From an uncultured virus (IMG/VR IMGVR_UViG_3300020471_001437) (lineage: Duplodnaviria; Heunggongvirae; Uroviricota; Caudoviricetes), in the IMG/VR virus record IMGVR_UViG_3300020471_001437: a stretch of 64,000 bases of DNA, one strand, 5' to 3'. A model generated the notes under the pieces. That model was given only the letters and a program-made list of their open reading frames with translations, ran no database searches and was not told the DNA's origin. Shown here piece after piece: positions 1 to 13,709 of this stretch. Numbering within the stretch: the stretch's first letter is position 1; each line of letters opens with the position of its first letter. The translations under genes were made by a program, and so were the position numbers.

Positions 1-3
1 TGG

Positions 4-825
4 TTGGGAATGCCCAACCCAAAATGGCGACAGATTCGATATTTCGTGTGGGACGATAGAGAGGAGAGATTCATTGTGAAGAAGCATGACAGGAGCATCC
101 GTAACAAGACGCAACTGCTCAAACTGCTTCGACGCGAGGCTCCTCATCACGTATACTACACAACCTCGCAGTTCCGCAATCCAGCGGAAGTGGGGCCTGA
201 CCCGTGGTCTAAATCGGGTCGGGACAAGTACATCAAGAAGAATGCAAAACGACTTGCTCTGAAAGAGGGCAGACGAGACAAAGAGAGAGTCAAACAATTG
301 ATGACTCCTGTCTCTGATTGGTCGGACTACGGTAATGCGTTCATTCAACAAGAGATGTACTTCGACGTTGACTATGAGATGGAGACCTTCCAAGAATCAG
401 CAAGGGAAACTTTGCGCTTGGCAGAGTTCTATGATACTCTCAACTTCAACGGTTGTGAGAAGGACATACACTTTGTCTTCTCGGGTGGTAAAGGATTCCA
501 CATGGTAGATTACGGCTTCAATGTCGGAAAGGCCTATGGAGACAACTACTCATTTCGCATTGGAGAAATCATTGCGAAAGAGAAAGAAAAAAGTGGAAAG
601 TTCAAGGGTGTCGCATATGCGGCTATGATGTTGAGTCGACAAATGAAAAAGCGACTCATCAAACGCATCCGAAAGGAAGGCATCCTACTCGACTACGAGG
701 TAACAGTAGACCCGCGCCGTATCATTCGGTTGCCGGGAACTATACACGGAAAGAGAGGACGTGTCTGCCGAATTATCAGCAGAGACGAACTACACGATTT
801 CGACCCCGGACCAACTCTTTGGTAG
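4..825 (+). CDS. Archaeo-eukaryotic primase catalytic subunit (PriS-like), probably 5'-truncated by the window edge
   Basis: AEP motifs HVYYTTS, YFDVD (DxD), FSGGKGFH and DYEVTVDPRRIIRLPGTIHGK. Confidence 0.8.
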   Translation: MGMPNPKWRQIRYFVWDDREERFIVKKHDRSIRNKTQLLKLLRREAPHHVYYTTSQFRNPAEVGPDPWSKSGRDKYIKKNAKRLALKEGRRDKERVKQLMTPVSDWSDYGNAFIQQEMYFDVDYEMETFQESARETLRLAEFYDTLNFNGCEKDIHFVFSGGKGFHMVDYGFNVGKAYGDNYSFRIGEIIAKEKEKSGKFKGVAYAAMMLSRQMKKRLIKRIRKEGILLDYEVTVDPRRIIRLPGTIHGKRGRVCRIISRDELHDFDPGPTLW

Positions 826-836
826 GTGGGTCATAG

Positions 837-1688
837 ATGCCAAATTGGTGTATGAATAGTCTCACCGTTTACGGTGACAAAGATGAACTTGAGAAGTTCA
901 TCAAGGATGCCAAAGGGAAAGGAGAAGACAAAGGACGAGCATTCAGTATGCAATCCTTGTTACCTTGCCCTAAATCTCTGACAGAAACGTCGGCCTCGTT
1001 TTGGGATAAAGACCAACCAAAACAATGGCGAGAATTCGTAGACGACCCTGAAAACTCTGCATGGACTGAAGAGGTCTACGCAGAAAGGGTTGCACGACAC
1101 GAAAAAGAAGGCATTCTTTACAAGAAAAACATGAAGGAGCATGGATATGCTTCTTGGTATGAATGGCAAATTGCGAATTGGGGAACGAAGTGGGATGTAG
1201 ACCTTTGGCACGAAGAAGGCTGGAAGTTTACCGACTACTATTCCCCTCCTTTTTTTGAAGCGCACCTTGAGATGATTGAATCTCAAGGCTCGGGTGAACA
1301 TTTTGATATTGGGAAACATTTCCACGCGTACAGTATTAGTTACAATACTGCGTGGTCACCCAATGAAGAGTTCTTGACCACTATCAGCAAAAACTACCCC
1401 AACCTTCGGTTCAGACACACGTTTGGCGAAGGTGGTTGTGACTTTGCTGGTGACAACTTGGTAAAGAACGGAGATAGCACAATAATTGTAACAGGACGTT
1501 ACAACGATTGGGCTGTACACTTGGGCTTTGAAGAATTGGATATATGGGTAGACGACTATGGGCACGAACCGCCCCCTGACGTCAACACACTCATTACTTC
1601 GCCACCTCAACTGTCACCATCAACAAACCCTTTCCTTGAAATGCTCTTAGGGGCATTACAAGGAAACATTACTGACAGTGAGGAATAA
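837..1688 (+). CDS. DUF1281/YubB ferredoxin-like family protein
   Basis: N-terminal MPNWCxN, WYEWQIANWGTKWD and YNTAWSP signatures. Confidence 0.75.
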   Translation: MPNWCMNSLTVYGDKDELEKFIKDAKGKGEDKGRAFSMQSLLPCPKSLTETSASFWDKDQPKQWREFVDDPENSAWTEEVYAERVARHEKEGILYKKNMKEHGYASWYEWQIANWGTKWDVDLWHEEGWKFTDYYSPPFFEAHLEMIESQGSGEHFDIGKHFHAYSISYNTAWSPNEEFLTTISKNYPNLRFRHTFGEGGCDFAGDNLVKNGDSTIIVTGRYNDWAVHLGFEELDIWVDDYGHEPPPDVNTLITSPPQLSPSTNPFLEMLLGALQGNITDSEE

Positions 1689-1741
1689 CGACACATCTGT
1701 GTCATAGAATCATTTATGTCTGCTTTTTACCTCGGAGTTAC

Positions 1742-2047
1742 ATGGTAAGAGCCACCGACATTAAGTACAAACCACTCGGCCCATTAGCAGGGATGATTGG
1801 AAGCAAAGCAAGAACAAGAGGACAAATCGTCAAAGCACTTTGGGCTTTCATTAAGAAAGAAGGCCTTCAGGGTGAAAGCGGTACCGGCAAGAAAATCAAA
1901 GTATCTTCCGGTAAGATGGAATCTTTGGGTAGAGTAATCTATGCTGAAGAGGACGACGATATGTATGAAATGGTTGGCAGAAAGAAACTTGTCACCATGT
2001 TCGAGATGAACAAGCGTATGGAAAAATACCTTGAACGTCAGAACTGA
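1742..2047 (+). CDS. Stand-alone SWIB/MDM2-domain protein
   Basis: LAGMIG...TRGQIVKALWAFIKKEGLQ...VTMFEMNKRMEKYL matches the SWIB consensus. Confidence 0.85.
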   Translation: MVRATDIKYKPLGPLAGMIGSKARTRGQIVKALWAFIKKEGLQGESGTGKKIKVSSGKMESLGRVIYAEEDDDMYEMVGRKKLVTMFEMNKRMEKYLERQN

Positions 2048-2053
2048 TTCATA

Positions 2054-2100
2054 GAACCAAATCAATCAAAACGACATTATCCAAGAATGGTGTATGGTTC
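2054..2100 (+). ncRNA. tigRNA-like stem-loop unit B1
   Basis: GAACC-AAATCA-[ATCAAAACG]-ACATTATCCA-[AGAATGGTG]-TAT-GGTTC; loop is 10 nt rather than 7. Confidence 0.75.
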
Positions 2101-2104
2101 ACAG

Positions 2105-2467
2105 ATGTCAGTCAAGACACTCGAGTTTCTCTCGACAAGGAGAGGAAAAGACGAGTTTGGTAGATTACCTCACTCGGAGTTGACCAACAGTGGCGAACTG
2201 TTGACGAGTTACGCGCTGAATGGCGACTTCTCGATTATTGAACAGATGAGCAGAGACTTCGTAACCGAACTATACGCTTCGGAAAACGAACCGTTTCATC
2301 TGCGAATATACAACACAGGAGTAGGCTATGCCCTATTCCACCTTATCCGTGCTTGGAATCAATGGCATGAAACATCATACAACGTGCACAACACGATGAG
2401 TTTGATGTTCTATGACAGAACATTAGGACAGTGGGTTGAACACCCATGGTACGGAACACGGCCTTGA
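2105..2467 (+). CDS. Hypothetical protein
   Basis: ORF; start moved from 2087 to the ATG directly after the ACAG junction. Confidence 0.65.
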   Translation: MSVKTLEFLSTRRGKDEFGRLPHSELTNSGELLTSYALNGDFSIIEQMSRDFVTELYASENEPFHLRIYNTGVGYALFHLIRAWNQWHETSYNVHNTMSLMFYDRTLGQWVEHPWYGTRP

Positions 2468-2475
2468 GGGCCATA

Positions 2476-2517
2476 GAGCAAAACAATGTCGACATATTGC
2501 ACGGTGATGGAATGCTC
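2476..2517 (+). ncRNA. tigRNA-like stem-loop unit A1
   Basis: GAGCA-AAACA-[ATGTCGACA]-TATTGCA-[CGGTGATGG]-AA-TGCTC. Confidence 0.8.
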
Positions 2518-2520
2518 ATA

Positions 2521-2564
2521 GAACCGAATCAGTAAGTTCGCATTACAAGGCGTTTGTATGGTTC
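2521..2564 (+). ncRNA. tigRNA-like stem-loop unit B2
   Basis: GAACC-GAATCA-[GTAAGTTCG]-CATTACA-[AGGCGTTTG]-TAT-GGTTC. Confidence 0.8.
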
Positions 2565-2568
2565 ATAG

Positions 2569-3018
2569 ATGTACGACGTGTACACCGACGGTGCATGTCT
2601 AAACAACGGTAGCCCCAATGCACGGGGTGGTATGGGAATTTACAGCAAGGAACTTGAGATTGAGAAATCATCAGTATGGACCTTGACTAATCCGCCTACC
2701 AATCAAAAGACAGAGATGATGGCAGTTGCTATTGCTCTTTCAATGACAAAAGACGTTAACGGACATGTACGCATCCTCTCTGACTCTGAATATGTTGTGA
2801 GGGGATTGAATGAATGGATGGAAGGTTGGAAACTACGAGAGTGGCGAACCTCCAAAGGACGGGAAGTGAAAAACCGTTGGCTTTGGGAACTTCTTGATTC
2901 ACTCAACCAAGAAAGAGATTGTTCCTTCGTACATGTACGAGGGCACGTTGGGATAGAAGGAAACGAGAAAGCAGACGAACTTGCTAATCGTGCGGCCTTC
3001 AGTGTCCCAAAAGAGTAA
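2569..3018 (+). CDS. rnhA: Ribonuclease HI
   Basis: VYTDGACLNNG, TNQKTE, SDSEYV, VKNRWLW, HVRGHVGIEGNEKADELA. Confidence 0.95.
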   Translation: MYDVYTDGACLNNGSPNARGGMGIYSKELEIEKSSVWTLTNPPTNQKTEMMAVAIALSMTKDVNGHVRILSDSEYVVRGLNEWMEGWKLREWRTSKGREVKNRWLWELLDSLNQERDCSFVHVRGHVGIEGNEKADELANRAAFSVPKE

Positions 3019-3068
3019 GAAACGTGAATCAATGTTTAACAATCATTATACGCCCCCTACGGGCATAG

Positions 3069-3419
3069 ATGTCAGCAATGGCAAGAGGAGGAGACGACAA
3101 GGGCGATGCTATGATTGAATCATACAAGGAACTTGTCTCTTTCGCATCGGAAGGTATAGAAGAATACCTTGCGGTAGTGGCTGAACTTCAAGACGCAAGC
3201 ATTGTCCTCGGTCAAATTGGCAAAGACACGCCAATAGACGCCGAGCAATGGGCGGCAAACTTGACAGCGAAAATTACGGAAACGATGGCAGAAGATGGAG
3301 TGGTGCCACACTACTACATTTCTGCTTTGATTTATTCCTTGCACCAAATGGGGCAAGCGTTTCTCTTCGACGGTCTCGAAGGAGCCGTAAGAAGTAAATT
3401 CGTGGAGGATAATATCTGA
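3069..3419 (+). CDS. Hypothetical protein
   Basis: ORF starting at a junction motif. Confidence 0.65.
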   Translation: MSAMARGGDDKGDAMIESYKELVSFASEGIEEYLAVVAELQDASIVLGQIGKDTPIDAEQWAANLTAKITETMAEDGVVPHYYISALIYSLHQMGQAFLFDGLEGAVRSKFVEDNI

Positions 3420-3724
3420 TGCCACTCGAAGGTGAAACCTTAGAAGAGTTCTATACGGCCATGGAGGCCATTTCAGAATTCGCTTGCGGTATACTTGACG
3501 GAAGTATAGGCAACATCGCGGGACCTACAAGTGAAGGACACTTTGGACATGACCATACGGTCATGCAAGTGCTACCTGAAAATCACCCGCATGTAACTAT
3601 TTACTTCATCAGTGAAGTAGACACCGGAAGGTTGGTTGGATGTAAAGTCCATCACCGAGACTACGAATTGCCTTGTTTGGAGATACCTCCACCAACGGCA
3701 ATGATGTTAGATAACGACGCATAG
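3419..3724 (+). CDS. Hypothetical protein
   Basis: Coupled to upstream gene by TGATG overlap; ends in a junction hairpin. Confidence 0.6.
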   Translation: MPLEGETLEEFYTAMEAISEFACGILDGSIGNIAGPTSEGHFGHDHTVMQVLPENHPHVTIYFISEVDTGRLVGCKVHHRDYELPCLEIPPPTAMMLDNDA

Positions 3725-3733
3725 GCGTCATAG

Positions 3734-4351
3734 ATGGCTGACTACGAAGTCAAACGATGGAATTCGAACTGCGGGGAATGGACGGCATATGTCACCCCCT
3801 CGCAAGATGAAGAATCACCAAAGCATTGGTATCAGGGCGATACCGATGTCCTTTTTGTAACTGCTGAAAATGATGGCAGATTTGGGTATACCGCGGCGAT
3901 ATTTGACGAGGTGTACCCAGCAGTTGGTAACAGTTGGCAAGACCTTCTTGACCACGTTATCGACGACCTTGAATACAACAACGTAATTGCTCCGCCGGTC
4001 TGTAAACCGCTATGGATTCACGACCACGGAGGAATTGTGGCGTTCCACACAGGAGGGAGCACCTGCCAATGGGACTCCTATCAGTGCGGATGGGTAATCG
4101 GGAAACCGGGCATCCAAGAAAGTCAAGTTGATTCAAGAGTAAAAGAAATGGAAATGTATCTAACGGGTCAGGTGTACGGAGTAATCGTACTCAAGAAAAC
4201 AGACGAAGGAGAATGGGAGTCAGTTGACTCCTGTTGGAGCATCTATGATGATGGAACCAACGACTATGGACACTGCTTTTCAGTAGCAGTAGACTTAGGC
4301 TTTCCTTTTTCTAACGACTCGGAAGAAACAATTCCGAAAGAAGACGCATGA
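3734..4351 (+). CDS. Hypothetical viral protein
   Basis: ORF starting at a junction motif; HDHGG...WDS..G and YLTGQVYG...DSCW motifs. Confidence 0.7.
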   Translation: MADYEVKRWNSNCGEWTAYVTPSQDEESPKHWYQGDTDVLFVTAENDGRFGYTAAIFDEVYPAVGNSWQDLLDHVIDDLEYNNVIAPPVCKPLWIHDHGGIVAFHTGGSTCQWDSYQCGWVIGKPGIQESQVDSRVKEMEMYLTGQVYGVIVLKKTDEGEWESVDSCWSIYDDGTNDYGHCFSVAVDLGFPFSNDSEETIPKEDA

Positions 4352-4360
4352 GCGTCATAG

Positions 4361-5392
4361 ATGGTACAAGATGTACAATTGTTCGATGAGGCTGACCTCA
4401 TCGTTAAGATGACCAAGGATTTGAAATCTGCGGCATCTACTCTCAAGAAGCCGGAAGTTAGGTTTCTTGTAGACGCATACTATCGTATGCAGGAGCAAAG
4501 AATCCGGTTCGCACACCAAATGCGGACAATGAAGGAATTCGGTGAGCCAAACGAGTTGTTGGATTGGATGTTTAATCAATCCAGCACACTTGAAAAGCAG
4601 GTTGCTGGTGCGCTTGATGCGTACTCAAGGAGCAACATTGTAGGGGATTGGCTTAGGTCTGTCCCGGGAATTGGGCCTGTCCTTGCGGCAGGTTTGATGG
4701 CACACCTAACCACTGCTCCATGGCGTTGCAGAAACGTCGCTTTGAAGGGCAAAAGGAACACCCCTTGTACAGAAGAAATGGGGCCCTGCACAGACAACTG
4801 TGGGGTCGAAGACATTCTGTATGCGGGACAATGGCACTCGTTTGCGGGACTAAACCCAAACGTTGTGTGGAACACAAAGGAACGTCGACCGTGGAACACA
4901 CCACTGAAGACGCTATGCTTCAAGATTGGAGAGTCCTTTGTTAAGATTCAAAGCCACAAAGATGATTTCTACGGAGGCGTATTCGTTGAACGAAAGAACG
5001 CCGAGTGGGAACGAAACTTCAACGGAGATAATGCCAATGCTTGTGAAAAGAAATTGGCAACAAGACTTGGTAAGTCAACCAACGCGTACAAATGGTACTC
5101 GGGTCAAATCGACGCCGAGTGGGCGCGTTCAATGTGGGAAAGTGGAAACTCGTTCCCGCAGACGATACCAAAGAAGGCAATTGTTGGAGAAGGAAAGGGC
5201 ACACCGATGCTTCCTCCTGCTCACATACACGCGCGAGCACGCAGGTACACAGTCAAACTGTTCCTGTATCACTTGCACGAAGTGATGTGGATTGTGGAAA
5301 GGAGCACTAACCCACCTCAACAAACCTTCTTCGCGGAAAGCGAGACCCGTATACCGGTTCCGATTTTCCCGAACTCTCCACAATGGAGTTAA
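4361..5392 (+). CDS. Nuclease-less Nop/IS110-C-terminal-domain RNA-binding protein (TasA-like)
   Basis: Coiled coil (LVDAYYRMQEQRIR...LEKQV), LRSVPGIGPVLAAGL, WHSFAGLNP...WNTPLKTLCFKIGESF and HARARRYTVKLFL. It has no N-terminal DEDD/RuvC domain and no IS110 catalytic SG after AGLxP, and it is surrounded by dual-spacer stem-loops. Confidence 0.8.
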   Translation: MVQDVQLFDEADLIVKMTKDLKSAASTLKKPEVRFLVDAYYRMQEQRIRFAHQMRTMKEFGEPNELLDWMFNQSSTLEKQVAGALDAYSRSNIVGDWLRSVPGIGPVLAAGLMAHLTTAPWRCRNVALKGKRNTPCTEEMGPCTDNCGVEDILYAGQWHSFAGLNPNVVWNTKERRPWNTPLKTLCFKIGESFVKIQSHKDDFYGGVFVERKNAEWERNFNGDNANACEKKLATRLGKSTNAYKWYSGQIDAEWARSMWESGNSFPQTIPKKAIVGEGKGTPMLPPAHIHARARRYTVKLFLYHLHEVMWIVERSTNPPQQTFFAESETRIPVPIFPNSPQWS

Positions 5393-5409
5393 CGGCCTAT
5401 ACGGCCATA

Positions 5410-5451
5410 GAGCAAAACAAACCGAGGGTATTGCACAATTCCGGTATGCTC
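5410..5451 (+). ncRNA. tigRNA-like stem-loop unit A2
   Basis: GAGCA-AAACA-[AACCGAGGG]-TATTGCA-[CAATTCCGG]-TA-TGCTC. Confidence 0.8.
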
Positions 5452-5454
5452 GTA

Positions 5455-5498
5455 GAACCGAATCACTAACTAAGAATTGCATTGTAACTAAATGGTTC
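5455..5498 (+). ncRNA. tigRNA-like stem-loop unit B3
   Basis: GAACC-GAATCA-[CTAACTAAG]-AATTGCA-[TTGTAACTA]-AAT-GGTTC. Confidence 0.8.
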
Positions 5499-5502
5499 AC
5501 AG

Positions 5503-5763
5503 ATGGATATTCACTGTGATAGAGTGACATACCAAGACAAGAAAACCGCCAAGAAAAGTGCAAGAGCACTAAAGGCGATGTCTATGGGAATGTATGGTAG
5601 TGTCAAAACGTACACACCGTACAAATGCAAAGAGTGTGGTCAATGGCACCTCACTACCGGCACGTCTGATAAACAGGCCCGGAGCAAAAAACAGCACGCT
5701 CGCGGTGGACGCAAGAACTTCAGAAAGAAGTCAACGCGTTCTCGAAAGAGCAGGCGTCGGTGA
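5503..5763 (+). CDS. Small basic zinc-finger protein
   Basis: YKCKECGQWHLT motif; Arg/Lys-rich tail. Confidence 0.7.
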   Translation: MDIHCDRVTYQDKKTAKKSARALKAMSMGMYGSVKTYTPYKCKECGQWHLTTGTSDKQARSKKQHARGGRKNFRKKSTRSRKSRRR

Positions 5764-5775
5764 GAAATCACCATA

Positions 5776-5817
5776 GAGCAAAACAAAGGAGATGAATCGC
5801 AAGCGTTCCGAATGCTC
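5776..5817 (+). ncRNA. tigRNA-like stem-loop unit A3
   Basis: GAGCA-AAACA-[AAGGAGATG]-AATCGCA-[AGCGTTCCG]-AA-TGCTC. Confidence 0.8.
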
Positions 5818-5820
5818 ATA

Positions 5821-5864
5821 GAACCGAACCAATATAGTGGTATTGCAATCTAAAAAAGAGGTTC
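5821..5864 (+). ncRNA. tigRNA-like stem-loop unit B4
   Basis: GAACC-GAACCA-[ATATAGTGG]-TATTGCA-[ATCTAAAAA]-AGA-GGTTC. Confidence 0.8.
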
Positions 5865-5868
5865 ACAG

Positions 5869-6225
5869 ATGGATGATAACAATACTATCCTACGTCTGCT
5901 CAGAAACGGCCCGTTCTCGAAAGGTTATCCTTTCGAAAAAGCCGTCAAAGCAAGACTTGACCTTGGCCGAGAACGATACGGCCACGGTATTCGTGTCGAA
6001 GACGACACAACCCAATGGGGAACAAAGACAGACTCTTGGCTCGAAATGGGCTTAGAAGAAGTCGACGACTTGGCGATTTACATCGCGGCGCAATTTGCAA
6101 GATATGTGGATTGGTGGGAACACGGACTTAGAACCGGCGTTCCTGCGACCGAGTATGGTGAAATCATGAACACTCTTACAAAATTGAGAACGCTTATCGT
6201 TGACCTCATGAAAAACCACGGGTGA
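5869..6225 (+). CDS. Possible MazG-like all-alpha NTP pyrophosphohydrolase
   Basis: GRERYG...WLEMGLEEVDDLAIY acidic helix pattern. Confidence 0.5.
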   Translation: MDDNNTILRLLRNGPFSKGYPFEKAVKARLDLGRERYGHGIRVEDDTTQWGTKTDSWLEMGLEEVDDLAIYIAAQFARYVDWWEHGLRTGVPATEYGEIMNTLTKLRTLIVDLMKNHG

Positions 6226-6266
6226 ATAACCCATAGATTGATGTATCAAACCCCATAGGCGGGTGT

Positions 6267-6479
6267 ATGGGCCGATTCACTACTCAAGCAATCAAGATAT
6301 TGCATGAGCAAGGTAGGCCCATGAACATACATGAAATTCATTCAGAGATGCGAATGAGATGGAGAAATACTCCGAACACTCGCTCTCTTGCAAAGGCACT
6401 GATGAAAAACAGTGAGGTTACAAGAATTGGTATAGACACGCCCTCGGTTTGGGCTGTCCGCCAACCTCTTAACCGATAA
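6267..6479 (+). CDS. Small winged-helix DNA-binding protein
   Basis: ILHEQGRPMNIHEI...TRSLAKAL...SVW wHTH-like pattern. Confidence 0.55.
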   Translation: MGRFTTQAIKILHEQGRPMNIHEIHSEMRMRWRNTPNTRSLAKALMKNSEVTRIGIDTPSVWAVRQPLNR

Positions 6480-6506
6480 GTCGTCGCCGACAAAAAGGGG
6501 ACACAG

Positions 6507-6749
6507 ATGATGCGACTACAAACGCATAAAGAACCGACGTATGACCGTACGTGGGATGAGATTGAGGAAATGCTCAATCAAGCGATACATGAGAGAAACT
6601 CATGGATTACTCGCTACGAGAAGGCAAGTGTTCGAAAAGACCGTCAGGTTATGAAGGACGCCGCTCGTAATTGTAAAGCACTTGAAGGAGTCATCAAGAC
6701 CCTAAAGTGGACAATCGGTACCCCCGGTATCGAAGACCCGCTCTCTTGA
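6507..6749 (+). CDS. Hypothetical helical protein
   Basis: ORF starting directly after CACAG and ending in a junction hairpin. Confidence 0.7.
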   Translation: MMRLQTHKEPTYDRTWDEIEEMLNQAIHERNSWITRYEKASVRKDRQVMKDAARNCKALEGVIKTLKWTIGTPGIEDPLS

Positions 6750-6758
6750 AAGAGCATA

Positions 6759-6802
6759 GAACCGAAACAAGGGCAAAGAATTGCATTGTCCATGAAAGGT
6801 TC
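6759..6802 (+). ncRNA. tigRNA-like stem-loop unit B5
   Basis: GAACC-GAAACA-[AGGGCAAAG]-AATTGCA-[TTGTCCATG]-AAA-GGTTC. Confidence 0.8.
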
Positions 6803-6806
6803 ACAG

Positions 6807-7226
6807 ATGGCATTAGTATGTCCGGATTGCGGCCAAGAGGCCGCTTATGCTCGGGTCCCTATTTACGTGGACCCGGACAATACGAGTGAGGACGCGCTTG
6901 CAGAAGCCGTTTCTGACATCGTTGGTGCAACTGCGGAAGATTTTGACGATTACGTCAACGTAGTATGCGCGGAGTGTGAAGCGGAAGTTCCGTTCAGACT
7001 TGCCTTCGCGGCAACCGTAAGAACACGCGCACACCGCAATTCAGAAGAGGAGGCAATGGCTTACCGTCATGCGTTGGCAGGAATCGTTCATTTCTTTGGA
7101 CGCTTACCAATGACAGACAGAAGCACTTGGACAGAAGAACAGACAGAGTGTTACGATGCTACTGTCAGGTTGTTCTCTGCTCTCGATGAAGCAGACACCT
7201 CTGAAGAATCTTCGGAAGAAGAGTGA
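6807..7226 (+). CDS. Zinc-ribbon protein
   Basis: CPDC...CAEC; start moved to the ATG after ACAG. Confidence 0.65.
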   Translation: MALVCPDCGQEAAYARVPIYVDPDNTSEDALAEAVSDIVGATAEDFDDYVNVVCAECEAEVPFRLAFAATVRTRAHRNSEEEAMAYRHALAGIVHFFGRLPMTDRSTWTEEQTECYDATVRLFSALDEADTSEESSEEE

Positions 7227-7244
7227 CGGCCGAAAGGCCATAGA

Positions 7245-8003
7245 ATGGGATTTCTCATACACACAAAGGAACACCCCGAATACCGAATACATTTCAGTAT
7301 GTGGGAATGGGGTAGATTCTTGGACCTAATTTTGTGGTCCAATGACCTTATCACTCTTGACGAGTTGAAAGAAAGTTTGACTAAGAGCAATCTTAGAGAG
7401 TCAAACGCCAAAGCAGAACAACTTGGAATCAAACCAACTGATTTCGATTTGGATGAATGGACAGAAAAAGTCAGAGTAGAAAAAGGAGACACCAAACAGC
7501 ACAAGAGCATTATCAATGTTCACGCTACGCCGGATGCTACCGGTAGGAACATATACGAAGGAGTTTCACAAACAATACCTTCGGATGTCGATTTTGGAAA
7601 AGAAGCCATAGATGCTATGGTTCGAACGGCGGCGATTAGTCTGTCGGTATTCCAAGAACTTGAAGATAAAATGTTCTACAACAAAGACAAATTGGGACAT
7701 CTGTACGGTATACAGGGGAACGATTTCGACTTTACAAGAAAGGGCTGTTGGGAAATATACAACACAATAACGTCACTGATTACAGGTGACATTGACTTCT
7801 TGGACATGATGGAAAAGTCGGGTATGCCCCCTCTTACGGACAGACCCAAGAAGCGAAGAAAATCAAAACAAAATGAATTCTTGGAGGCTGATGATAGCAT
7901 CGTGGGAGAATACCTCCACATGGAGATGCTTGGAAAGATGGCACGACTGAATGGTATCGTAATCAACGGTATCTGCGCCGACCAACAAGTCATTGTGAGA
8001 TAA
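7245..8003 (+). CDS. Hypothetical protein
   Basis: 252 aa ORF bounded by junction motifs. Confidence 0.7.
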   Translation: MGFLIHTKEHPEYRIHFSMWEWGRFLDLILWSNDLITLDELKESLTKSNLRESNAKAEQLGIKPTDFDLDEWTEKVRVEKGDTKQHKSIINVHATPDATGRNIYEGVSQTIPSDVDFGKEAIDAMVRTAAISLSVFQELEDKMFYNKDKLGHLYGIQGNDFDFTRKGCWEIYNTITSLITGDIDFLDMMEKSGMPPLTDRPKKRRKSKQNEFLEADDSIVGEYLHMEMLGKMARLNGIVINGICADQQVIVR

Positions 8004-8020
8004 CGGCCTTATGGCCATAG

Positions 8021-9070
8021 ATGACGTCATGGGATTATGACGGTGCGTTAGATTATCTACGCAAAGGACGTGACCCTTATGGAAAGGGGCGTCCTATGGG
8101 CAAGGCTACGAGACTTCAGTATCGCGGTCAGGTTGAAAATGGATATGAGTGCATTGCACTCCGCTATTGGCAAACTGATGTGGTACGATGGTATCGTTCC
8201 ATTGCCAACAAATCAAACAAATGGTACTCTATCGACGCACAGTATGATAGTAGAACCACCAACGATAGAATACAAGCCTACACAGGCTTGTGGACTTCGC
8301 CTTGTAAAGCAACAGGAAAGAGAGTTATCCAACAATGGCGTTGGGACTACGACACCTGTGAGCAGACAGGGAGTAAGAGCAATTGGAGAGAAGTAGTTGT
8401 TGAAGGAAGTGAAATTCCTTTGATTGCTGACCATCAAACGTGGTTCCGTAAAGACGGACATGTTAGACACTTGAAGCGGTGCCAAGACAGGTACCGTAGA
8501 GAGATGGGTGAGTACAATGTTCGGAAAAACAACCGACGAATAGACTACGAAGAAAAACTCCTCAAAGCAAGACAGGCCAACTTGAAAATACTCAGGGAAT
8601 GGTCTAACAGCAAACTTGTAAGGGCTTTGGACGGGATGAAATCCAAAAGTCTTGTTCAGGTTCAAAGAGAAATGGAAACCTTACATTTTCGTACACAGCG
8701 TGCGAAAGCAGAAGCAGAGAGAAGAGAAGTTCACTTTGCTGAATTAGAAGACAAAATCATTGTCGGCAAACGCTTGAAGAAAATGGAGCAAGAAATGAAA
8801 GCACGCGCTGAAGTCTTAAAAGTTGCAGAAACTTACCCTGAAATCAGGAAGGCGATGCACAAACTCAATCTTCAACTTGACAACCTTAGAGGAAAGGTAG
8901 ACCTCGCTGAAGATACTTATCGAATGCAAAAGGTGAGAGACAATCTTAGCCTCGAAAACATACGATTGCTAAAAGAAAAAGAAGCGTTGGAAAAAGAAGT
9001 TGGCTACTTACTTGCAAAAAAGGAAGGAGCCCAAGCAGACGAACATTCGTCTGTACTAAACCGTCTCTAA
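8021..9070 (+). CDS. Coiled-coil protein, paralog of 10433-11299
   Basis: C-terminal coiled coil ending SVLNRL, similar to DVLNRL in the paralog. Confidence 0.75.
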   Translation: MTSWDYDGALDYLRKGRDPYGKGRPMGKATRLQYRGQVENGYECIALRYWQTDVVRWYRSIANKSNKWYSIDAQYDSRTTNDRIQAYTGLWTSPCKATGKRVIQQWRWDYDTCEQTGSKSNWREVVVEGSEIPLIADHQTWFRKDGHVRHLKRCQDRYRREMGEYNVRKNNRRIDYEEKLLKARQANLKILREWSNSKLVRALDGMKSKSLVQVQREMETLHFRTQRAKAEAERREVHFAELEDKIIVGKRLKKMEQEMKARAEVLKVAETYPEIRKAMHKLNLQLDNLRGKVDLAEDTYRMQKVRDNLSLENIRLLKEKEALEKEVGYLLAKKEGAQADEHSSVLNRL

Positions 9071-9080
9071 AGAGACATAG

Positions 9081-9314
9081 ATGACTGATACAAGATTCAG
9101 CATACACAAGCCAAAGTCGTCAACAGAAAACAAGAACACCGACAGTGTCGAATGTGTTCTGTCTGTTAACGATGGAGTTGCCAGCATCAAGTGTGAAATG
9201 CTTGATGGGTTTAACGCCGAAATTAGGCTTGGTTACGACGGTTACAAGATAATCGTCGTCTTGATGGATTCCGAGGACTACATGGAATCATTGACTATTT
9301 ACAAGGGCGTATAA
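9081..9314 (+). CDS. Hypothetical protein
   Basis: ORF starting at a junction motif. Confidence 0.6.
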   Translation: MTDTRFSIHKPKSSTENKNTDSVECVLSVNDGVASIKCEMLDGFNAEIRLGYDGYKIIVVLMDSEDYMESLTIYKGV

Positions 9315-9337
9315 CGCTCGTCTCCAAGTGAGACATA

Positions 9338-9380
9338 GAACCGAACATAGATTATGTATTACAAAGCCGACGAATGGTTC
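9338..9380 (+). ncRNA. tigRNA-like stem-loop unit B6
   Basis: GAACC-GAACA-[TAGATTATG]-TATTACA-[AAGCCGACG]-AAT-GGTTC. Confidence 0.8.
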
Positions 9381-9384
9381 ACAG

Positions 9385-9789
9385 ATGTCTGATACAGACG
9401 ACATTGAGTACGTCATGGCACGTATCTCCGCAATGAGCGAAGCGAAGAAAGAACTTGACAGAGCCATCAAGGCCGACAAGAAGTACATTCGTGAAAAGAT
9501 GGGCGACAGAGAAGAACTCGTAACTGATTCTTTTACTGCGTCTACATTCTTGTTCAAGCGGAAGCAAGCCATGAAGTTAGATGAAATCCGGAAAGTTCTC
9601 GGTGACGAGGCGGCGGATTCTGTTACAAAGACCATAGAGGTCGAATATCTCAACATCAACCCCACAGAAGGAGAACTTGAGCCGTGGATATTGCAACCGG
9701 GAGAACTACTTCCGGAATGGGCAATGACGGCATACAAGATGCTTCATGGGAACTATCACCGAGAGGTGCTTGTTGATAACGACGCATAA
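9385..9789 (+). CDS. Hypothetical protein, paralog of 11402-11800
   Basis: Shared KAxKKxxRExxG...TxxFT pattern; start moved to the ATG after ACAG. Confidence 0.7.
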   Translation: MSDTDDIEYVMARISAMSEAKKELDRAIKADKKYIREKMGDREELVTDSFTASTFLFKRKQAMKLDEIRKVLGDEAADSVTKTIEVEYLNINPTEGELEPWILQPGELLPEWAMTAYKMLHGNYHREVLVDNDA

Positions 9790-9797
9790 GCGTCATA

Positions 9798-9841
9798 GAA
9801 CCGAACCATGGAAAGGATAATGCACGATGGGGGAACGGTTC
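9798..9841 (+). ncRNA. tigRNA-like stem-loop unit B7
   Basis: GAACC-GAACCA-[TGGAAAGGA]-TAATGCA-[CGATGGGGG]-AAC-GGTTC. Confidence 0.8.
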
Positions 9842-9845
9842 ACAG

Positions 9846-10322
9846 ATGCCTGACTTTAGAGAAGGGTTAGATGTAGGAAGAGAGGTAAGCAATGGTGAAA
9901 ACTTTGAGATGCCTCCTCATACATATACGAAGGACCAAGTTCTTCGAATATACGGAGACGCAAAAACCATGAAAGACATAGGCGAAGATGCCTACGATGG
10001 ATTTCTGAAATGGTTTCTTGACGAACTCGAACAAGAGAAGGATAAGCAACAACAACCCCTTTACAGACACGCAATCATCGCCATAGAAGGGCGACAATGG
10101 TGTGACTACGACGTTCAATACAGACAGAGTAAAATTACTGTCAATGAAGAGAACATCGAAGATGTAAAGAGAATATCAAAAGAACCTGTTGAAATAGGGG
10201 ACAAAATCCCTTCGATTCACTTCTACTTGTATACAGCAATACGTGTGAGAAACCCCACTTTCACAAGACTGTCGTTCTCGGCAGGAGAAGACATGTGGGA
10301 TGAACTCGCAGACTTGTTGTGA
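9846..10322 (+). CDS. Hypothetical protein
   Basis: ORF starting at a junction motif. Confidence 0.7.
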   Translation: MPDFREGLDVGREVSNGENFEMPPHTYTKDQVLRIYGDAKTMKDIGEDAYDGFLKWFLDELEQEKDKQQQPLYRHAIIAIEGRQWCDYDVQYRQSKITVNEENIEDVKRISKEPVEIGDKIPSIHFYLYTAIRVRNPTFTRLSFSAGEDMWDELADLL

Positions 10323-10339
10323 CCGGTCGTAAGACCATA

Positions 10340-10381
10340 GAGCAAAACATTTGTTGAGTATTACATTAATCCCGAATGCTC
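10340..10381 (+). ncRNA. tigRNA-like stem-loop unit A4
   Basis: GAGCA-AAACA-[TTTGTTGAG]-TATTACA-[TTAATCCCG]-AA-TGCTC. Confidence 0.8.
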
Positions 10382-10384
10382 ATA

Positions 10385-10428
10385 GAACCAAATCAAGCGT
10401 ACTGAATTGCAAGGGTTACGTAAGGTTC
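10385..10428 (+). ncRNA. tigRNA-like stem-loop unit B8
   Basis: GAACC-AAATCA-[AGCGTACTG]-AATTGCA-[AGGGTTACG]-TAA-GGTTC. Confidence 0.8.
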
Positions 10429-10432
10429 GTAG

Positions 10433-11299
10433 ATGAAAAATAGGAGAAAACCCTATCTCCCGTATGGTAACATCGGAAAGAAGTTACCAATACTGCGGGA
10501 TTTCGACGACGCTTTCGCCTATTGGGAACAGCGTCGATTCAAGAAAAACAATTACCGGACTTTGCCTTATGCACAAGGTAGATACCGGATTCAATTGAAA
10601 GAAAAAAGAGACCGACTTTACAGTTGGTCACATCAAGAGATGCACATTGTAGACATGGACAGTGGAAATTTTGGGTGGTCTATGTTCAATGAAAATTCTA
10701 TTGTGATTTTCTACAAAACCAAGGAAGGAGAAAAGTACTTCTCTGTTGCTGGATTTGATGGGAGAAATAGACAAACAAGAAGAGGTTACTACCCGATTTA
10801 CCGCAAATGCGGTATCAGTGTTCAATGGGACCCTGTTTTGAGACAGGCGTTCATTAGACAGTTGACGGGAGTCGAAGACACAGAGCCGAGTTTAGGTTAT
10901 GTGGCCGACCACACAACAGTAATCTCTCATAAATACGAACCGAAAGACAAAGAGCAAGCGGAACTGATAGCCAAGTTGCAGAAGCAAAAGGCGTTTAGGT
11001 CTGAATTGCGAAGAATACATCGTTCGTACAATATGGAAAAAGAACATGCAAAGCGAACTCTGAATAGTGTTCGGGAGAAACTGAAGAGAGACATAAAGAG
11101 ACTTGAAAGTGACTACCGAACTTTGGAAAGAGATGCTACGATGAAACACAACCTCGCGCTCGCAAAAATGGCTGACGAAGTCAATGAATTGAAGAGCGAA
11201 AGGGATGCGTTATACGCACGTGTGAAATATCTTGAAGATTTGGGCAAGAAGGCTGACGCTGATGGCGAGAAGTTTTCTGATGTCCTAAACCGTCTCTAA
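10433..11299 (+). CDS. Coiled-coil protein, paralog of 8021-9070
   Basis: Similar N-terminus (DFDDAFAY vs DYDGALDY) and C-terminus VLNRL. Confidence 0.75.
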   Translation: MKNRRKPYLPYGNIGKKLPILRDFDDAFAYWEQRRFKKNNYRTLPYAQGRYRIQLKEKRDRLYSWSHQEMHIVDMDSGNFGWSMFNENSIVIFYKTKEGEKYFSVAGFDGRNRQTRRGYYPIYRKCGISVQWDPVLRQAFIRQLTGVEDTEPSLGYVADHTTVISHKYEPKDKEQAELIAKLQKQKAFRSELRRIHRSYNMEKEHAKRTLNSVREKLKRDIKRLESDYRTLERDATMKHNLALAKMADEVNELKSERDALYARVKYLEDLGKKADADGEKFSDVLNRL

Positions 11300-11308
11300 G
11301 GAGACATA

Positions 11309-11350
11309 GAGCAAAACAAATCATAAGAATTACACCATAGATGAATGCTC
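11309..11350 (+). ncRNA. tigRNA-like stem-loop unit A5
   Basis: GAGCA-AAACA-[AATCATAAG]-AATTACA-[CCATAGATG]-AA-TGCTC. Confidence 0.8.
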
Positions 11351-11353
11351 ATA

Positions 11354-11397
11354 GAACCGAACCATTTCCTGTGTATTCCACTCTACGTGAACGGTTC
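11354..11397 (+). ncRNA. tigRNA-like stem-loop unit B9
   Basis: GAACC-GAACCA-[TTTCCTGTG]-TATTCCA-[CTCTACGTG]-AAC-GGTTC. Confidence 0.8.
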
Positions 11398-11401
11398 ACA
11401 G

Positions 11402-11800
11402 ATGTTGTTGGAAAACGACGAAGAAGTTGCGCTAAACAATTTGGCACAACGATTCCTTGACGAGAAAGAGCGATTCAAGGAGGTAGAGGCACAAGTGAAA
11501 GCACTCAAGAAAGAACTGCGTGAATCTGTTGGTTCAGGCAAGATTATTGAGACAAGCAAATTCACACTTGAAATCAGAGAGATTGAAGCCAACCGTATGA
11601 TGCCAAAGGATGATTTCATCCACAAGCATTCTCCCATCAGGGAAGACGAACAAGGAAACGTAATGGTAAACTCAAAAGGAGTACCACTACGCGACTTATC
11701 GGTAGGTACGAAAATCTACGACGACCACTTAGTGGCCTCTACACAACAGCGTTTCTATGTGAAGCGCAAGGACAAAACACAGACTTCGAAAGAAGAATGA
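11402..11800 (+). CDS. Hypothetical protein, paralog of 9385-9789
   Basis: Start moved to the ATG after ACAG; similar to 9385-9789. Confidence 0.7.
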   Translation: MLLENDEEVALNNLAQRFLDEKERFKEVEAQVKALKKELRESVGSGKIIETSKFTLEIREIEANRMMPKDDFIHKHSPIREDEQGNVMVNSKGVPLRDLSVGTKIYDDHLVASTQQRFYVKRKDKTQTSKEE

Positions 11801-11817
11801 CGGCCTTACGGCCATAG

Positions 11818-12225
11818 ATGTTTAACGAAAACACCACTGACGAAGATGTCAAACTTATGTCCCGCATGATTGCGGGAGCATTAAGGAATCAAATCTTCGA
11901 GCCAATCCATCAGCACATTAGTGATGATGAAATGGGTCCAATACAAGACCGTATGAGGGGATGTATCTACGAAATACTGAATGGTATTCGTATAACACAT
12001 GAACCTCGGGTCGGGCTGGACCTATACCGAGAACACCTTGCCAAGTTGGAACTATACCCAATCGACACTACTGAATTTGAAGTAGAGGCGACAAGAAGAA
12101 CAATACAAGGCGAGACTTGGTCCCCCCCGACTAAGGGAAGACAATTAGAAGAATGGGAGATGGCGAGGGCACGACGAGAGAAAGCATTTTCTCGCCGAGG
12201 TCCTTTCTCCTGTGAAGAAGAATGA
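11818..12225 (+). CDS. Hypothetical protein
   Basis: ORF bounded by identical junction hairpins. Confidence 0.65.
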   Translation: MFNENTTDEDVKLMSRMIAGALRNQIFEPIHQHISDDEMGPIQDRMRGCIYEILNGIRITHEPRVGLDLYREHLAKLELYPIDTTEFEVEATRRTIQGETWSPPTKGRQLEEWEMARARREKAFSRRGPFSCEEE

Positions 12226-12257
12226 CGGCCTTACGGCCATAGTAGCGATTGGTCACA

Positions 12258-12301
12258 GAATCGAAACAAAATGTTGACTTTGCAAAAAACATGTAAGATT
12301 C
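12258..12301 (+). ncRNA. tigRNA-like stem-loop unit C1 (variant stem)
   Basis: GAATC-GAAACA-[AAATGTTGA]-CTTTGCA-[AAAAACATG]-TAA-GATTC; GAATC/GATTC is a compensatory change relative to GAACC/GGTTC. Confidence 0.75.
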
Positions 12302-12306
12302 ATTGA

Positions 12307-12353
12307 GAGAGAGAAGTAGACAGAAATGTCCGCTTCTCTCTCATTTTTTTTTT
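12307..12353 (+). terminator. Hairpin plus T10 terminator closing the early cluster
   Basis: GAGAGAGAAG..GACA-GAAA-TGTC..CTTCTCTCTC followed by 10 T, at the convergence with the replication operon. Confidence 0.8.
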
Positions 12354-12356
12354 GGA

Positions 12357-13709
12357 CTATTCAGCGGCGACGTCGGCTTCTTCGGGAGTCGATGTCGTCG
12401 CTTTTTCTTTTTTGGCGTCTTCGGCGGCAAGGTCCGAGCATAGAATCGAGTATGCTTCGTAGCGGGGTACAGTGTAGTCTCCGGGGACTACGTGTCTGTC
12501 CAACGGGTAGACGTAAACTTCGTTCTTCACGGAAACATCTACCAAGTCCTTACCAAGACTCTCTCGAATGTGCTCAAACAACTTGTCTACGTTGTCAAGC
12601 ATTTCGTACGTGATTTCGATACACGGAAGGCCCGATGTGGTGTGTAGTGAACCAACTGCTCTCAATTGTCTCTTCAAGTCCTTGGTGATTTGGTCAGCCT
12701 CTACACCCTTGCGTAATTGTGTCTGTTGCACCACCATGCGAATCAGGTGTTGAATAGCCGCGTTCTTCATTCCGCTTGACTTGGCCCAATGTGTTAGACG
12801 CCAATCCTTGGATAGATTGCGTAGAACGTGTTGGTTCAGCAAGAAGTTGTGAATCTGTAACAACGTCGGTTCCTTGATGTTCTCTTTCACGTCAGATACG
12901 AACTTCGGACGCTTGAACATAGAGTGATTGATGGATTGCTTGATTGGAATCCAAGACCGTAGAAGGTTAAGTCTGTCTTCTTCGGTTAGGTGCTCTTGGT
13001 GGTATTCGTCTACTAACTCGATGAATGTGTCAGTGAAGTGACCGCCCCAACCGGGGACGCCTTTCGGGTACAGACGGTATTCGTACTGCCCGCGAGGGTT
13101 AGACCATACCTTCTTGCTGTTTGATACATCTATGAAACCACTCAAGTGGACTTCATCGCCCCGTACATAGTTCTCTATGTTGGTTCTCTCTTCTGCCCCC
13201 ATTGTGATGAGGTTTTCGTCGTCGATTACCATGTGGTACCCACGGTTGCCCGAGAAGCGGATAGAAATCGCTTCGGAGTCGATACCAAGGTCCTTGGTCA
13301 AGAATCTGTGAAGTCGCTTTGCGTTGGCACTTGCCTGTTCGAGACCATTACGGTAAGAGGTGATATTCGGAAGGTGGTCGTAGTCAATATCGAATCCAAT
13401 GTCGATGCTTTCGAAGCCTTTGTCTTCCATGACCCATGTCTTGTGAACATCGGGGTCAATCTTCTTTGTTGCAAATGGTTCCCTGCGAGCAGGGTCAAAG
13501 TAACGGGCAAGACTGTGATAGAAGACCCGTGGTGGTTTCTCGTTGATGTATTCCTTTAGGTCGTCCATACTGCCGAAACCATGGTGTCGGTTTGTCTTGT
13601 CGAAACAGAACTCTCTCCGTTGTAGTGAACTGATTTTCAGTTCAGTGCGCGAGTAGAAGTCACGAATGACTTCGTCAAAGTCATCAATCGACAATGGCAT
13701 CGGGCTCAC
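12357..13709 (-). CDS. priS: Archaeal-type DNA primase small subunit
   Basis: RREFCF, FYHSLARYFDP, GFDIDYDHL, FSGNRGYH, DQITKDLKRQLRAVGSLH. Confidence 0.9.
   Translation of the reverse strand: MSPMPLSIDDFDEVIRDFYSRTELKISSLQRREFCFDKTNRHHGFGSMDDLKEYINEKPPRVFYHSLARYFDPARREPFATKKIDPDVHKTWVMEDKGFESIDIGFDIDYDHLPNITSYRNGLEQASANAKRLHRFLTKDLGIDSEAISIRFSGNRGYHMVIDDENLITMGAEERTNIENYVRGDEVHLSGFIDVSNSKKVWSNPRGQYEYRLYPKGVPGWGGHFTDTFIELVDEYHQEHLTEEDRLNLLRSWIPIKQSINHSMFKRPKFVSDVKENIKEPTLLQIHNFLLNQHVLRNLSKDWRLTHWAKSSGMKNAAIQHLIRMVVQQTQLRKGVEADQITKDLKRQLRAVGSLHTTSGLPCIEITYEMLDNVDKLFEHIRESLGKDLVDVSVKNEVYVYPLDRHVVPGDYTVPRYEAYSILCSDLAAEDAKKEKATTSTPEEADVAAE

Follow-up and report, generated by a model that had tools for sequence, protein, structure and literature searches.

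The window, meaning the whole 64,000-nt stretch of a marine phage in the uncultured virus record IMGVR_UViG_3300020471_001437 to which all coordinates refer, very probably encodes a TIGR-Tas system of the TasA type whose stem-loop guides lie outside any tandem array, one or two in each occupied intercistronic gap of a long early operon. This reading rests on the family of the protein encoded at 4361–5392, on a unit frame homologous to that of array units in related systems, on dispersal of the units throughout a clade of relatives, and on the turnover of spacers between strains. Stem-loop TIGR-TasA systems as such are known; the dispersed, operon-embedded layout with strain-specific guide cassettes is, in all likelihood, new.

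The Tas protein and the guide units

The central gene is the following:

4361–5392, + strand: tasA, nuclease-less TIGR-associated Nop-domain protein of 343 aa (NF052498.1, profile and fold)

A first-pass annotation, drawn up from the letters of the DNA, had read this gene as a Nop/IS110-type RNA-binding region without RuvC, had assigned it to the TasA type and had proposed a profile and structure comparison, which bears out both statements. The NCBIfam model NF052498.1 ("TIGR-Tas system RNA-guided endonuclease") scores 147.5 bits against a cut-off of 100, spanning residues 33–309 of the protein and model positions 1–214 of 215. Pfam detects no nuclease domain and gives no match at all for the protein alone; 30 of 48 aligned homologues carry PF02371. 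The family profile of these 48 homologues matches the TasR structure 9MTY (a TasR ribonucleoprotein complex according to the data statement of Faure et al., PMC12045711) with an E-value of 2.4e-25 and TasH with 4.7e-12, and the IS110-type structures IS621 and ISCro4 more weakly (8e-07 and 1.2e-05). Similarly, TasH and TasR chains make up the ten best Foldseek matches of the AlphaFold2 model (predicted local distance difference test score, pLDDT, 89.5), and IS621 and ISCro4 come next. The first aligned residue of TasR is 123, and the query has no more than ~40 residues ahead of the matched part, leaving no room for a RuvC or HNH nuclease, which places the protein in the TasA type. The IS110 model NF033542 reaches only 16.2 bits against a cut-off of 140, over residues 73–117, and no N-terminal DEDD/RuvC-like domain is present; hence, the protein is no IS110 recombinase. 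By sequence comparison, the product of 4361–5392 is a Tas protein of the nuclease-less TasA type. A word-indexed protein search with it returns 1,615 proteins at E ≤ 0.001. PADLOC finds nothing, and a scan of prokaryote genome contigs contains no relative of the protein and therefore gives no clue to the host.

TasA consists of a coiled-coil (residues ~19–90), a helix-hairpin-helix motif (GIGPV) and an insertion with four cysteines (residues ~119–147). With a score of 0.49, the homodimer model exceeds the best of three controls (0.00) and attains a mark reached by 20 of 30 proteins solved as one-chain pairs and by 1 of 23 solved as single chains. The interface is formed by residues 17–84 of the long helices, with a contact agreement of at least 54% between runs and a partner pLDDT of at least 77. 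Dimerization through the coiled-coil is predicted by this model, and the pass may reflect the Tas dimers that are already solved. The four-cysteine insertion (PWRC...PC...C..C, encoded at 4715–4800, after the helix-hairpin-helix motif) is possibly a zinc knuckle, with a model confidence of ~70 in this region; it is common to the clade of the window and to scattered homologues, and most of the family lacks it. Considered as a possible marker for guides of the stem-loop kind, the insertion was found in five of five aligned TasA proteins of the clade and in none of five tandem-array relatives, and it was rejected as a strict correlate because one further locus (L003) has both. The C-terminal family consensus Y...HxGHxH is absent from the clade, and the accessible literature reports the loss of a Y/H processing loop in stem-loop TIGR systems. 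If the motif comprises the catalytic residues, its absence may correspond to that loss, which makes it a lead only.

All 15 units of the first-pass annotation were recovered with the frame claimed for them, on the + strand between 2054 and 12301, at 10 intergenic sites holding five pairs and five singles. Each of them is parsed as a 5-bp stem arm, 2–4 nt and CA, 9 nt, a loop ending in CA, 9 nt, 2–3 nt and the second stem arm, so that CA directly precedes 30 of 30 spacers. The lengths are 42 nt (five units), 43 nt (one), 44 nt (eight) and 47 nt (one). The stems are GAACC/GGTTC in nine units, GAGCA/TGCTC in five and GAATC/GATTC in one, and in paired sites the GAGCA unit comes first every time. 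The individual units are listed below:

2054–2100, + strand: unit 1, GAACC type, 47 nt, with a 10-nt loop; followed by ACAG and the ATG at 2105
2476–2517, + strand: unit 2, GAGCA type, 42 nt, first of a pair; both spacers replaced in strain L046
2521–2564, + strand: unit 3, GAACC type, 44 nt; followed by ATAG and the ATG at 2569; identical in L046
5410–5451, + strand: unit 4, GAGCA type, 42 nt, first of a pair just 3' of tasA; replaced in L046 and in the X2/X3 contigs
5455–5498, + strand: unit 5, GAACC type, 44 nt; followed by ACAG and the ATG at 5503; replaced in L046
5776–5817, + strand: unit 6, GAGCA type, 42 nt; identical in L046
5821–5864, + strand: unit 7, GAACC type, 44 nt; followed by ACAG and the ATG at 5869; replaced in L046
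6759–6802, + strand: unit 8, GAACC type, 44 nt; followed by ACAG and the ATG at 6807
9338–9380, + strand: unit 9, GAACC type, 43 nt; followed by ACAG and the ATG at 9385
9798–9841, + strand: unit 10, GAACC type, 44 nt; followed by ACAG and the ATG at 9846
10340–10381, + strand: unit 11, GAGCA type, 42 nt
10385–10428, + strand: unit 12, GAACC type, 44 nt; followed by GTAG and the ATG at 10433
11309–11350, + strand: unit 13, GAGCA type, 42 nt
11354–11397, + strand: unit 14, GAACC type, 44 nt; followed by ACAG and the ATG at 11402
12258–12301, + strand: unit 15, compensated GAATC/GATTC variant, 44 nt; last element before the terminator; its counterpart in the relative G001 has other spacers

The loop repeat had been given as 7 nt with the consensus WATTRCA. 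This consensus is exact in nine of the 15 units and one or two bases off in five more, and the loop size holds for 14 units, the loop of the unit at 2054 having 10 nt. The counts for the ninth base (G in 25 of 30 spacers, A in five) and the distinctness of all 30 spacers were reproduced. The stretch counted as 9 variable nt is better divided into 8 variable nt and a conserved purine belonging to box D: in the catalogue of the clade, which holds 95 distinct spacer pairs, the four bases are all used at positions 1–8 and position 9 is a purine (G in 86–87 of 95), and the arrays of sister systems and of a Salicola phage show the same CA-N8-R arrangement. The dual-spacer, box-flanked frame CA-N8-R ... 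CA-N8-R, by which TIGR-Tas guides are recognized, is found in 15 of 15 units. Among 101 units of the clade, 66 have GAACC/GGTTC stems and 25 have GAGCA/TGCTC stems, and the further variants GAGCG/CGCTC, GAATC/GATTC and GGACT/AGTCC are all compensated. Since pairing was required by the unit finder itself, only the variant types of the stem count as evidence. Complementarity between spacer A and spacer B within a unit was considered and rejected, the cognate mean (2.65) showing no excess over that of non-cognate pairs (2.58).

The strict finder combines a YA-G context, a paired 5-bp stem and the frame. On the + strand of the window it yields 16 hits, namely the 15 units and one unrelated hit at 39918, compared with one hit on the − strand. 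A unit profile searched with nhmmer (E ≤ 0.01) recovers 13 of the 15 units and nothing else in the 64 kb, the − strand being empty. In all related DNA, 96 of 617 frame-only hits on the + strand have a perfect flanking stem, against 15 of 349 on the − strand. The unit set exceeds chance. Rfam assigns no family to the units, its three sub-threshold hits lying elsewhere.

The frame is that of tandem arrays which accompany sister TasA proteins. In L002 (on the same contig as L066), L065 and L069, with TasA proteins 35–52% identical to that of the window, tandem arrays of 35–36-nt units lie directly downstream of tas, on the tas strand. Each array unit consists of an edge repeat GAGCGAGCCA, N8 plus a purine, a loop repeat AAYATGCA, and again N8 plus a purine. 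The canonical dual-repeat array of L002 comprises ~22 units at L002:10900–11700, downstream of tas, and a different tandem array of ~40 units occupies L003:10060–11500 (40% TasA identity); the L002 and L003 arrays are useful outgroups for how the array was dispersed. In the accessible part of Table S1 of PMC12045711, the proteins of L002, L065 and L069 are listed as TIGR systems (node10324), and the SpTIGR array of Salicola phage CGphi29 appears with 8-nt spacers and an edge repeat, AGCGAGCCA, that resembles the sister one. The dual-repeat arrays of node10324 and the array of the Salicola TasH have, like the window, the CA-N8-R frame with an 8-nt variable part, and the sister loop repeat AAYATGCA resembles the WATTRCA of the window. 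The shared frame and the similar loop repeat settle the family, the strand and the status of the ninth base as box D. The architectures differ: the sister arrays are tandem, lie directly 3' of tas and lack terminal stems, whereas in the clade of the window two stem arms and a linker stand for the sister edge repeat, and the units are spread among genes.

Dispersal, spacer turnover and operon junctions

The dispersal over 10 sites in 10 kb given in the first-pass annotation holds within the window, and its extent had been understated. L045, a contig that matches the window at 99.98% identity along 15,390 bp, reaches 5.6 kb further upstream and carries nine more units there; the set of the window is therefore incomplete at its 5' end, and its phage contains 24 or more units in ~18 kb. 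In L055 (75% TasA identity), 12 units are spread over 15.9 kb to either side of tas. G001, a complete relative of 140,336 bp with terminal repeats and 68% TasA identity, contains 28 units by the strict pattern and six by the profile, or at least 34 over 38 kb, all on the + strand at 53.4–91.6 kb, downstream of its tas at 52.0 kb. In both the window and G001, all units lie on the coding strand. Tandem Repeats Finder (TRF) detects no tandem 35–36-nt array in the operon of the window, in agreement with the first-pass annotation, nor in G001 and the other loci tested with at least 68% TasA identity; its hits in G001 are confined to the left end and to 45.4 kb. Because L045, L055 and G001 all carry dispersed units without a tandem array, the dispersed layout is a trait of the clade (at least 68% TasA identity) and not an accident of one genome. 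The expectation that array finders would miss such units also stood up, in that none of the 15 passes the published first-pass TIGRFinder rule, applied on either strand in a re-implementation of our own. In a separate 16-letter pattern scan of viral contigs, most single hits look like chance, and only those of the G001 record were retained.

Spacers are exchanged between close strains, and the invariant spacer positions that the first-pass annotation had named as evidence against guides are not what related genomes display. Over 3,989 bp, strain L046 matches the window at 91.25% identity, and six units are common to both. Two of these are identical, and in the other four the spacer A, loop, spacer B and 3' linker are replaced, with the stems and flanks unchanged. 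Identity between the two strains is 62/108 in spacers and 138/154 at other unit positions, compared with 3128/3384 in coding sequences and 994/1125 at third codon positions. In addition, a complete GAACC unit separates the ATAG from the tasA ATG in L046, a position without a unit in the window. Two junctions, with flanks 88–98% identical, are orthologous among five strains of the G001 clade; the strains carry 0–3 units there, and the spacer pairs of all 12 units are different. The X2/X3 contigs, from DNA runs, align up to the unit stems and then continue with other spacer-loop-spacer strings. Furthermore, gene-sized replacements bounded by junctions occur in these contigs: ~290 extra letters at 8003–8021, 236 other letters at 9782–9833, and, at 11818–12241, 42 letters in place of the whole gene 11818–12225. 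Within one genome, no spacer pair of the 95 is repeated. Strain-specific guide repertoires are thus observed as a pattern of exchange, for which recombination would be the mechanism. Unlike all other units, the GAATC-stem unit at L045:184–227 persists in a more distant relative (L055:1331–1374, TasA 75% identical), with an identical spacer A and a spacer B one base off, and for this reason may have a conserved target.

The units are embedded in a co-oriented operon whose elements other than genes are listed below:

1–12353, + strand: co-oriented small-gene operon with tasA and all units, defined from the open reading frames and the junction table; continues upstream of the window
3716–3733, + strand: unit-less junction, hairpin GACGC-ATAG-GCGTC, then ATAG and the ATG at 3734
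4343–4360, + strand: unit-less junction, hairpin GACGC-ATGA-GCGTC with the stop codon TGA in the loop, then ATAG and the tasA ATG
12307–12353, + strand: terminator-like hairpin read from the sequence, 10-bp stem GAGAGAGAAG/CTTCTCTCTC, 16-nt loop, T10 run

The terminator-like hairpin follows the last unit and is conserved in G001; it is unlisted in the consensus scan because the loop limit of that scan is 8 nt. At nearly all genes of the operon, the junction has a fixed order, consisting of a stop-codon hairpin, CATAG, and none, one or two units, each followed by AYAG, ahead of the ATG. This general hairpin-AYAG-ATG grammar around the units had escaped the first-pass annotation. The junction table contains 15 rows with units and 10 rows with only a short hairpin and ATAG or ATAGA before the ATG. 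NYA precedes 15 of 15 units, the first G of the unit completing NYAG, and RYAG follows 14 of 15; nine units end 4 nt ahead of an ATG. Sites with a short hairpin and AYAGA number 16 in the first 10 kb of the window against 0–4 in every other 10-kb bin, and in G001 they number 11–21 per 10-kb bin at 50–90 kb against 0–5 elsewhere, compared with ~3 per 10 kb in reversed-sequence controls. Between 830 and 12240 on the + strand, for example at 8004–8023 and 9062–9083, hairpins carry a stop codon in or beside the loop, and the next ATG is without a Shine-Dalgarno-like sequence.

Contigs from two RNA-library runs of one sample cover 4847–5024 (178 nt) within tasA and five other coding stretches at 99–100% identity. 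They speak for expression of the operon only weakly, because DNA carry-over is possible in such libraries. The contigs cover no unit; since contigs cannot show small RNAs, nothing follows from this.

Relation to known systems and alternative readings

The accessible part of PMC12045711 describes stem-loop guide RNAs (tigRNAs) of TasA systems with a dual-spacer, box-flanked, stem-closed layout, and the units of the window share this layout. The reference case is PlTasA, the TasA of a Peromyscus leucopus gut contig with a stem-loop TIGR array (PMC12045711; 10.64898/2026.08.11.744272; 10.64898/2026.09.09.750476, as far as accessible). For other TasA proteins, the same accessible literature reports RNA-guided DNA binding and repression and a conserved adenine directly before each spacer. 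PlTasA-type systems, like the window, combine a nuclease-less Tas with an adenine before the spacer, here within CA before 30 of 30. The details differ. PlTIGR units (Table S1, PMC12045711) read stem-CCA-N9-CG...CCA-N9-CG-stem, with 7–8-bp stems abutting the boxes, whereas the window units have 5-bp stems, internal linkers of 2–4 nt, an NCA box C, an 8-nt variable part and a single-purine box D. The base of the stem carries CUU in published stem-loop systems and AYAG linkers in the window. Published stem-loop units are said to occupy "flexible genomic positions", either within tas or to either side of it; in PlTasA-type systems they form tandem arrays or sub-arrays beside or inside tas, whereas the phage of the window has them singly or in pairs at gene junctions spread over 18 kb or more. 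Tandem units next to or within tas, otherwise a published trait of TIGR-Tas, do not occur in the window. A full-text search of the accessible TIGR-Tas literature gave no account of guides interleaved with unrelated genes, and the signature peptides of the clade are in no protein among the 9,182 rows listed of Table S1 (PMC12045711). Xu et al. (10.64898/2026.09.09.750476, accessible part) leave open a compact TasR branch in dense viral genomes without detectable arrays.

Two further systems resemble the window in part. PeSL (promoter-early stem-loop) cassettes of T4-type phages (accessible parts of PMC2839356 and PMC4122927) are repeated stem-loop motifs between small early genes, and, like the junctions of the window, they mark boundaries of gene insertion, deletion or replacement between close strains. 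PeSLs are promoter-terminator composites. In the window, by contrast, only 4 nt lie between hairpin and ATG, sigma-70-like sites are about as frequent as in shuffled sequence (18 against 17.7), and dual-spacer guide units occupy many of the junctions. With box C/D snoRNAs and IS110 bridge RNAs the window shares a Nop/IS110-type protein and two-part guides flanked by C/D-like boxes, and snoRNAs are likewise scattered and embedded in other transcripts. Compared with box C/D snoRNPs, no fibrillarin or L7Ae partner is seen in the window, nor a K-turn, for which no specific search was made; compared with IS110 recombinases, the protein of the window is without RuvC/DEDD, and the Tas family targets DNA.

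In the working proposed here, each unit would fold so that its 5-bp stem closes a loop with two 8-nt spacers, a box-C-like CA before and a box-D-like purine after each spacer, and the 7-nt loop repeat between them. The operon would be transcribed as one polycistronic RNA up to the terminator at 12307–12353; the co-orientation and the terminator are observed. The units would be cut out at the 3–4-nt AYAG linkers flanking each unit and the stop-codon hairpin, which would take the place of the CUU motif reported for other stem-loop systems. If cuts occur at AYAG around units and hairpins alike, guide release and cistron separation would be one process. A TasA dimer would bind the unit by contacts with its stem, with the A and C of box C and with the purine of box D, as suggested by homology to the solved TasA, TasR and TasH complexes and by the dimer model. 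By analogy with these, the complex would bind double-stranded DNA with one spacer per strand and, having no nuclease, would block transcription or replication of a target in a host or rival element, as published for other TasA proteins. In the published geometry, each spacer has its 5' end at the outer unwinding junction, from which a site made of spacer B and then the reverse complement of spacer A would be expected. Meanwhile, the cassettes would be renewed by recombination at the conserved junction motif, giving each strain a repertoire of its own.

A bolder version of this working is that the array has dissolved into the punctuation of the operon, where hairpin-AYAG elements both free guides and separate cistrons and the junction motif is the recombination site of cassettes. 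This version is tentative, and doubt outweighs confidence in it. If true, it would be similar to the tRNA punctuation of mitochondrial transcripts, and the dose of guides would be tied to early transcription. Spacer-loop-spacer cassettes would be swapped between co-infecting phages, supplying new guides without Cas1/Cas2-like machinery, and the same explanation would cover tas loci of dense viral genomes that look "arrayless".

Several results weigh against a guide function. A target scan in both orders of the spacers (18-mers with at most 3–4 mismatches; 8+8 sites with gaps of 0–4 nt and at most two mismatches) gave no composite two-strand target beyond shuffled spacers in the window (64 kb), in G001 (140 kb) or across both, and exact 9-mer spacer matches are not clearly above shuffles once self-hits are removed. 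As composite sites are no commoner than in shuffles there, the targets probably lie outside the phage. The stem is weak alone: it is present in the minimum-energy fold of 13 of 15 units, with z-scores against shuffles from +0.28 to −3.25 and only two below −2, most of them being unremarkable, and thermodynamic support for the stem was dropped as evidence. The unit flanks lack the CUU reported at the boundaries where stem-loop tigRNAs are processed, and in our re-implementation none of the 15 units passes the rule published for stem-loop guides (CNA as box C, 9 nt, YG as box D; accessible sources). In addition, the rapid replacement of unit interiors could come from recombination between junction repeats without selection on guide content.

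In an alternative reading, the junction elements are mainly cis-acting punctuation and recombination modules similar to PeSLs, TasA binds the units in cis on the mRNA and tunes downstream translation or stability, and the spacers are length-constrained filler that lacks any target in trans. The placement of nine units 4 nt before an ATG, the stop-codon hairpins that fill the same slot at 10 other junctions, the restriction of hairpin-AYAGA sites to the unit-bearing regions of the window and G001, the breaking of gene-content differences between strains at junctions, and the lack of a target in the window or G001 would all suit it. The frame, however, is found in the genuine TIGR arrays that belong to sister TasA proteins, and other TasA proteins are published as trans-acting DNA binders. 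Filler would also drift neutrally, at the pace of third positions that are 88% identical, whereas the units are either identical or wholly replaced. As the main explanation, this reading is improbable; a role in cis and guidance in trans are not mutually exclusive.

The Nop domain, the missing nuclease and the scattered, transcript-embedded units, which resemble many snoRNAs, would also suit guidance of TasA to RNA (host rRNA, tRNA or mRNA) in the manner of a box C/D snoRNP. All Tas proteins tested so far, two TasA proteins among them, bind double-stranded DNA, and no methyltransferase or L7Ae-like partner turned up when 20 neighbouring proteins were scanned against Pfam; RNA targeting is very improbable. 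The whole L046 unit between the tasA ATAG and ATG, bounded by ATAG and ACAG, looks like a short duplication, which would be expected if the units were MITE-like mobile insertions or decaying, now functionless remnants of an array. Mobile copies keep the interior and vary at the ends, whereas here the ends are constant around 95 distinct interiors; every unit also retains the frame with a purine at position 9, and units occur only at gene junctions and only on the coding strand. An origin of this kind is hardly credible.

With a dispersed TIGR-TasA system as the preferred reading, the lineage bears on three of the four problems named as open, in the accessible literature, since the description of TIGR-Tas in 2025, namely spacer gain, natural targets, maturation of stem-loop guides and array-less tas loci. 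With regard to arrays, guides need be neither tandem nor tas-adjacent, and array-centred searches can therefore miss them. For maturation, guides placed in mRNA gaps with a conserved linker provide a concrete processing hypothesis. For spacer gain, the junctions kept and cassettes swapped in close strains form a natural series for studying turnover. Moreover, the 95 distinct spacer pairs could be used directly as queries when marine metagenomes are searched for targets.

Neighbouring genes and other observations

Phages in GenBank give no match to positions 2000–12400 of the window, and the window contains no tRNAs. A few genes upstream of tasA, on the + strand, lie an RNase H gene (2569–3018; PF00075, E 2e-35) and a gene for a SWIB/MDM2-domain protein (1742–2047). 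An RNase H adjoining a system expected to form RNA-DNA hybrids may merit attention.

At 60448–60752, tandem repeats with periods of 21, 39 and 60 nt are rich in CGCCGCCGCAAGTCA. Related GC-rich repeats are situated at the extreme left end of G001 (1–134), adjoining its terminal repeat, on which account the window may reach a genome terminus at 60448–60752. Between 36659 and 57941 on the + strand, very large open reading frames encode proteins of 1405, 876, 968, 1465 and 2138 aa, all but one without a PHROG hit. The 876-aa protein contains polynucleotide-kinase-like and NUDIX-like parts.

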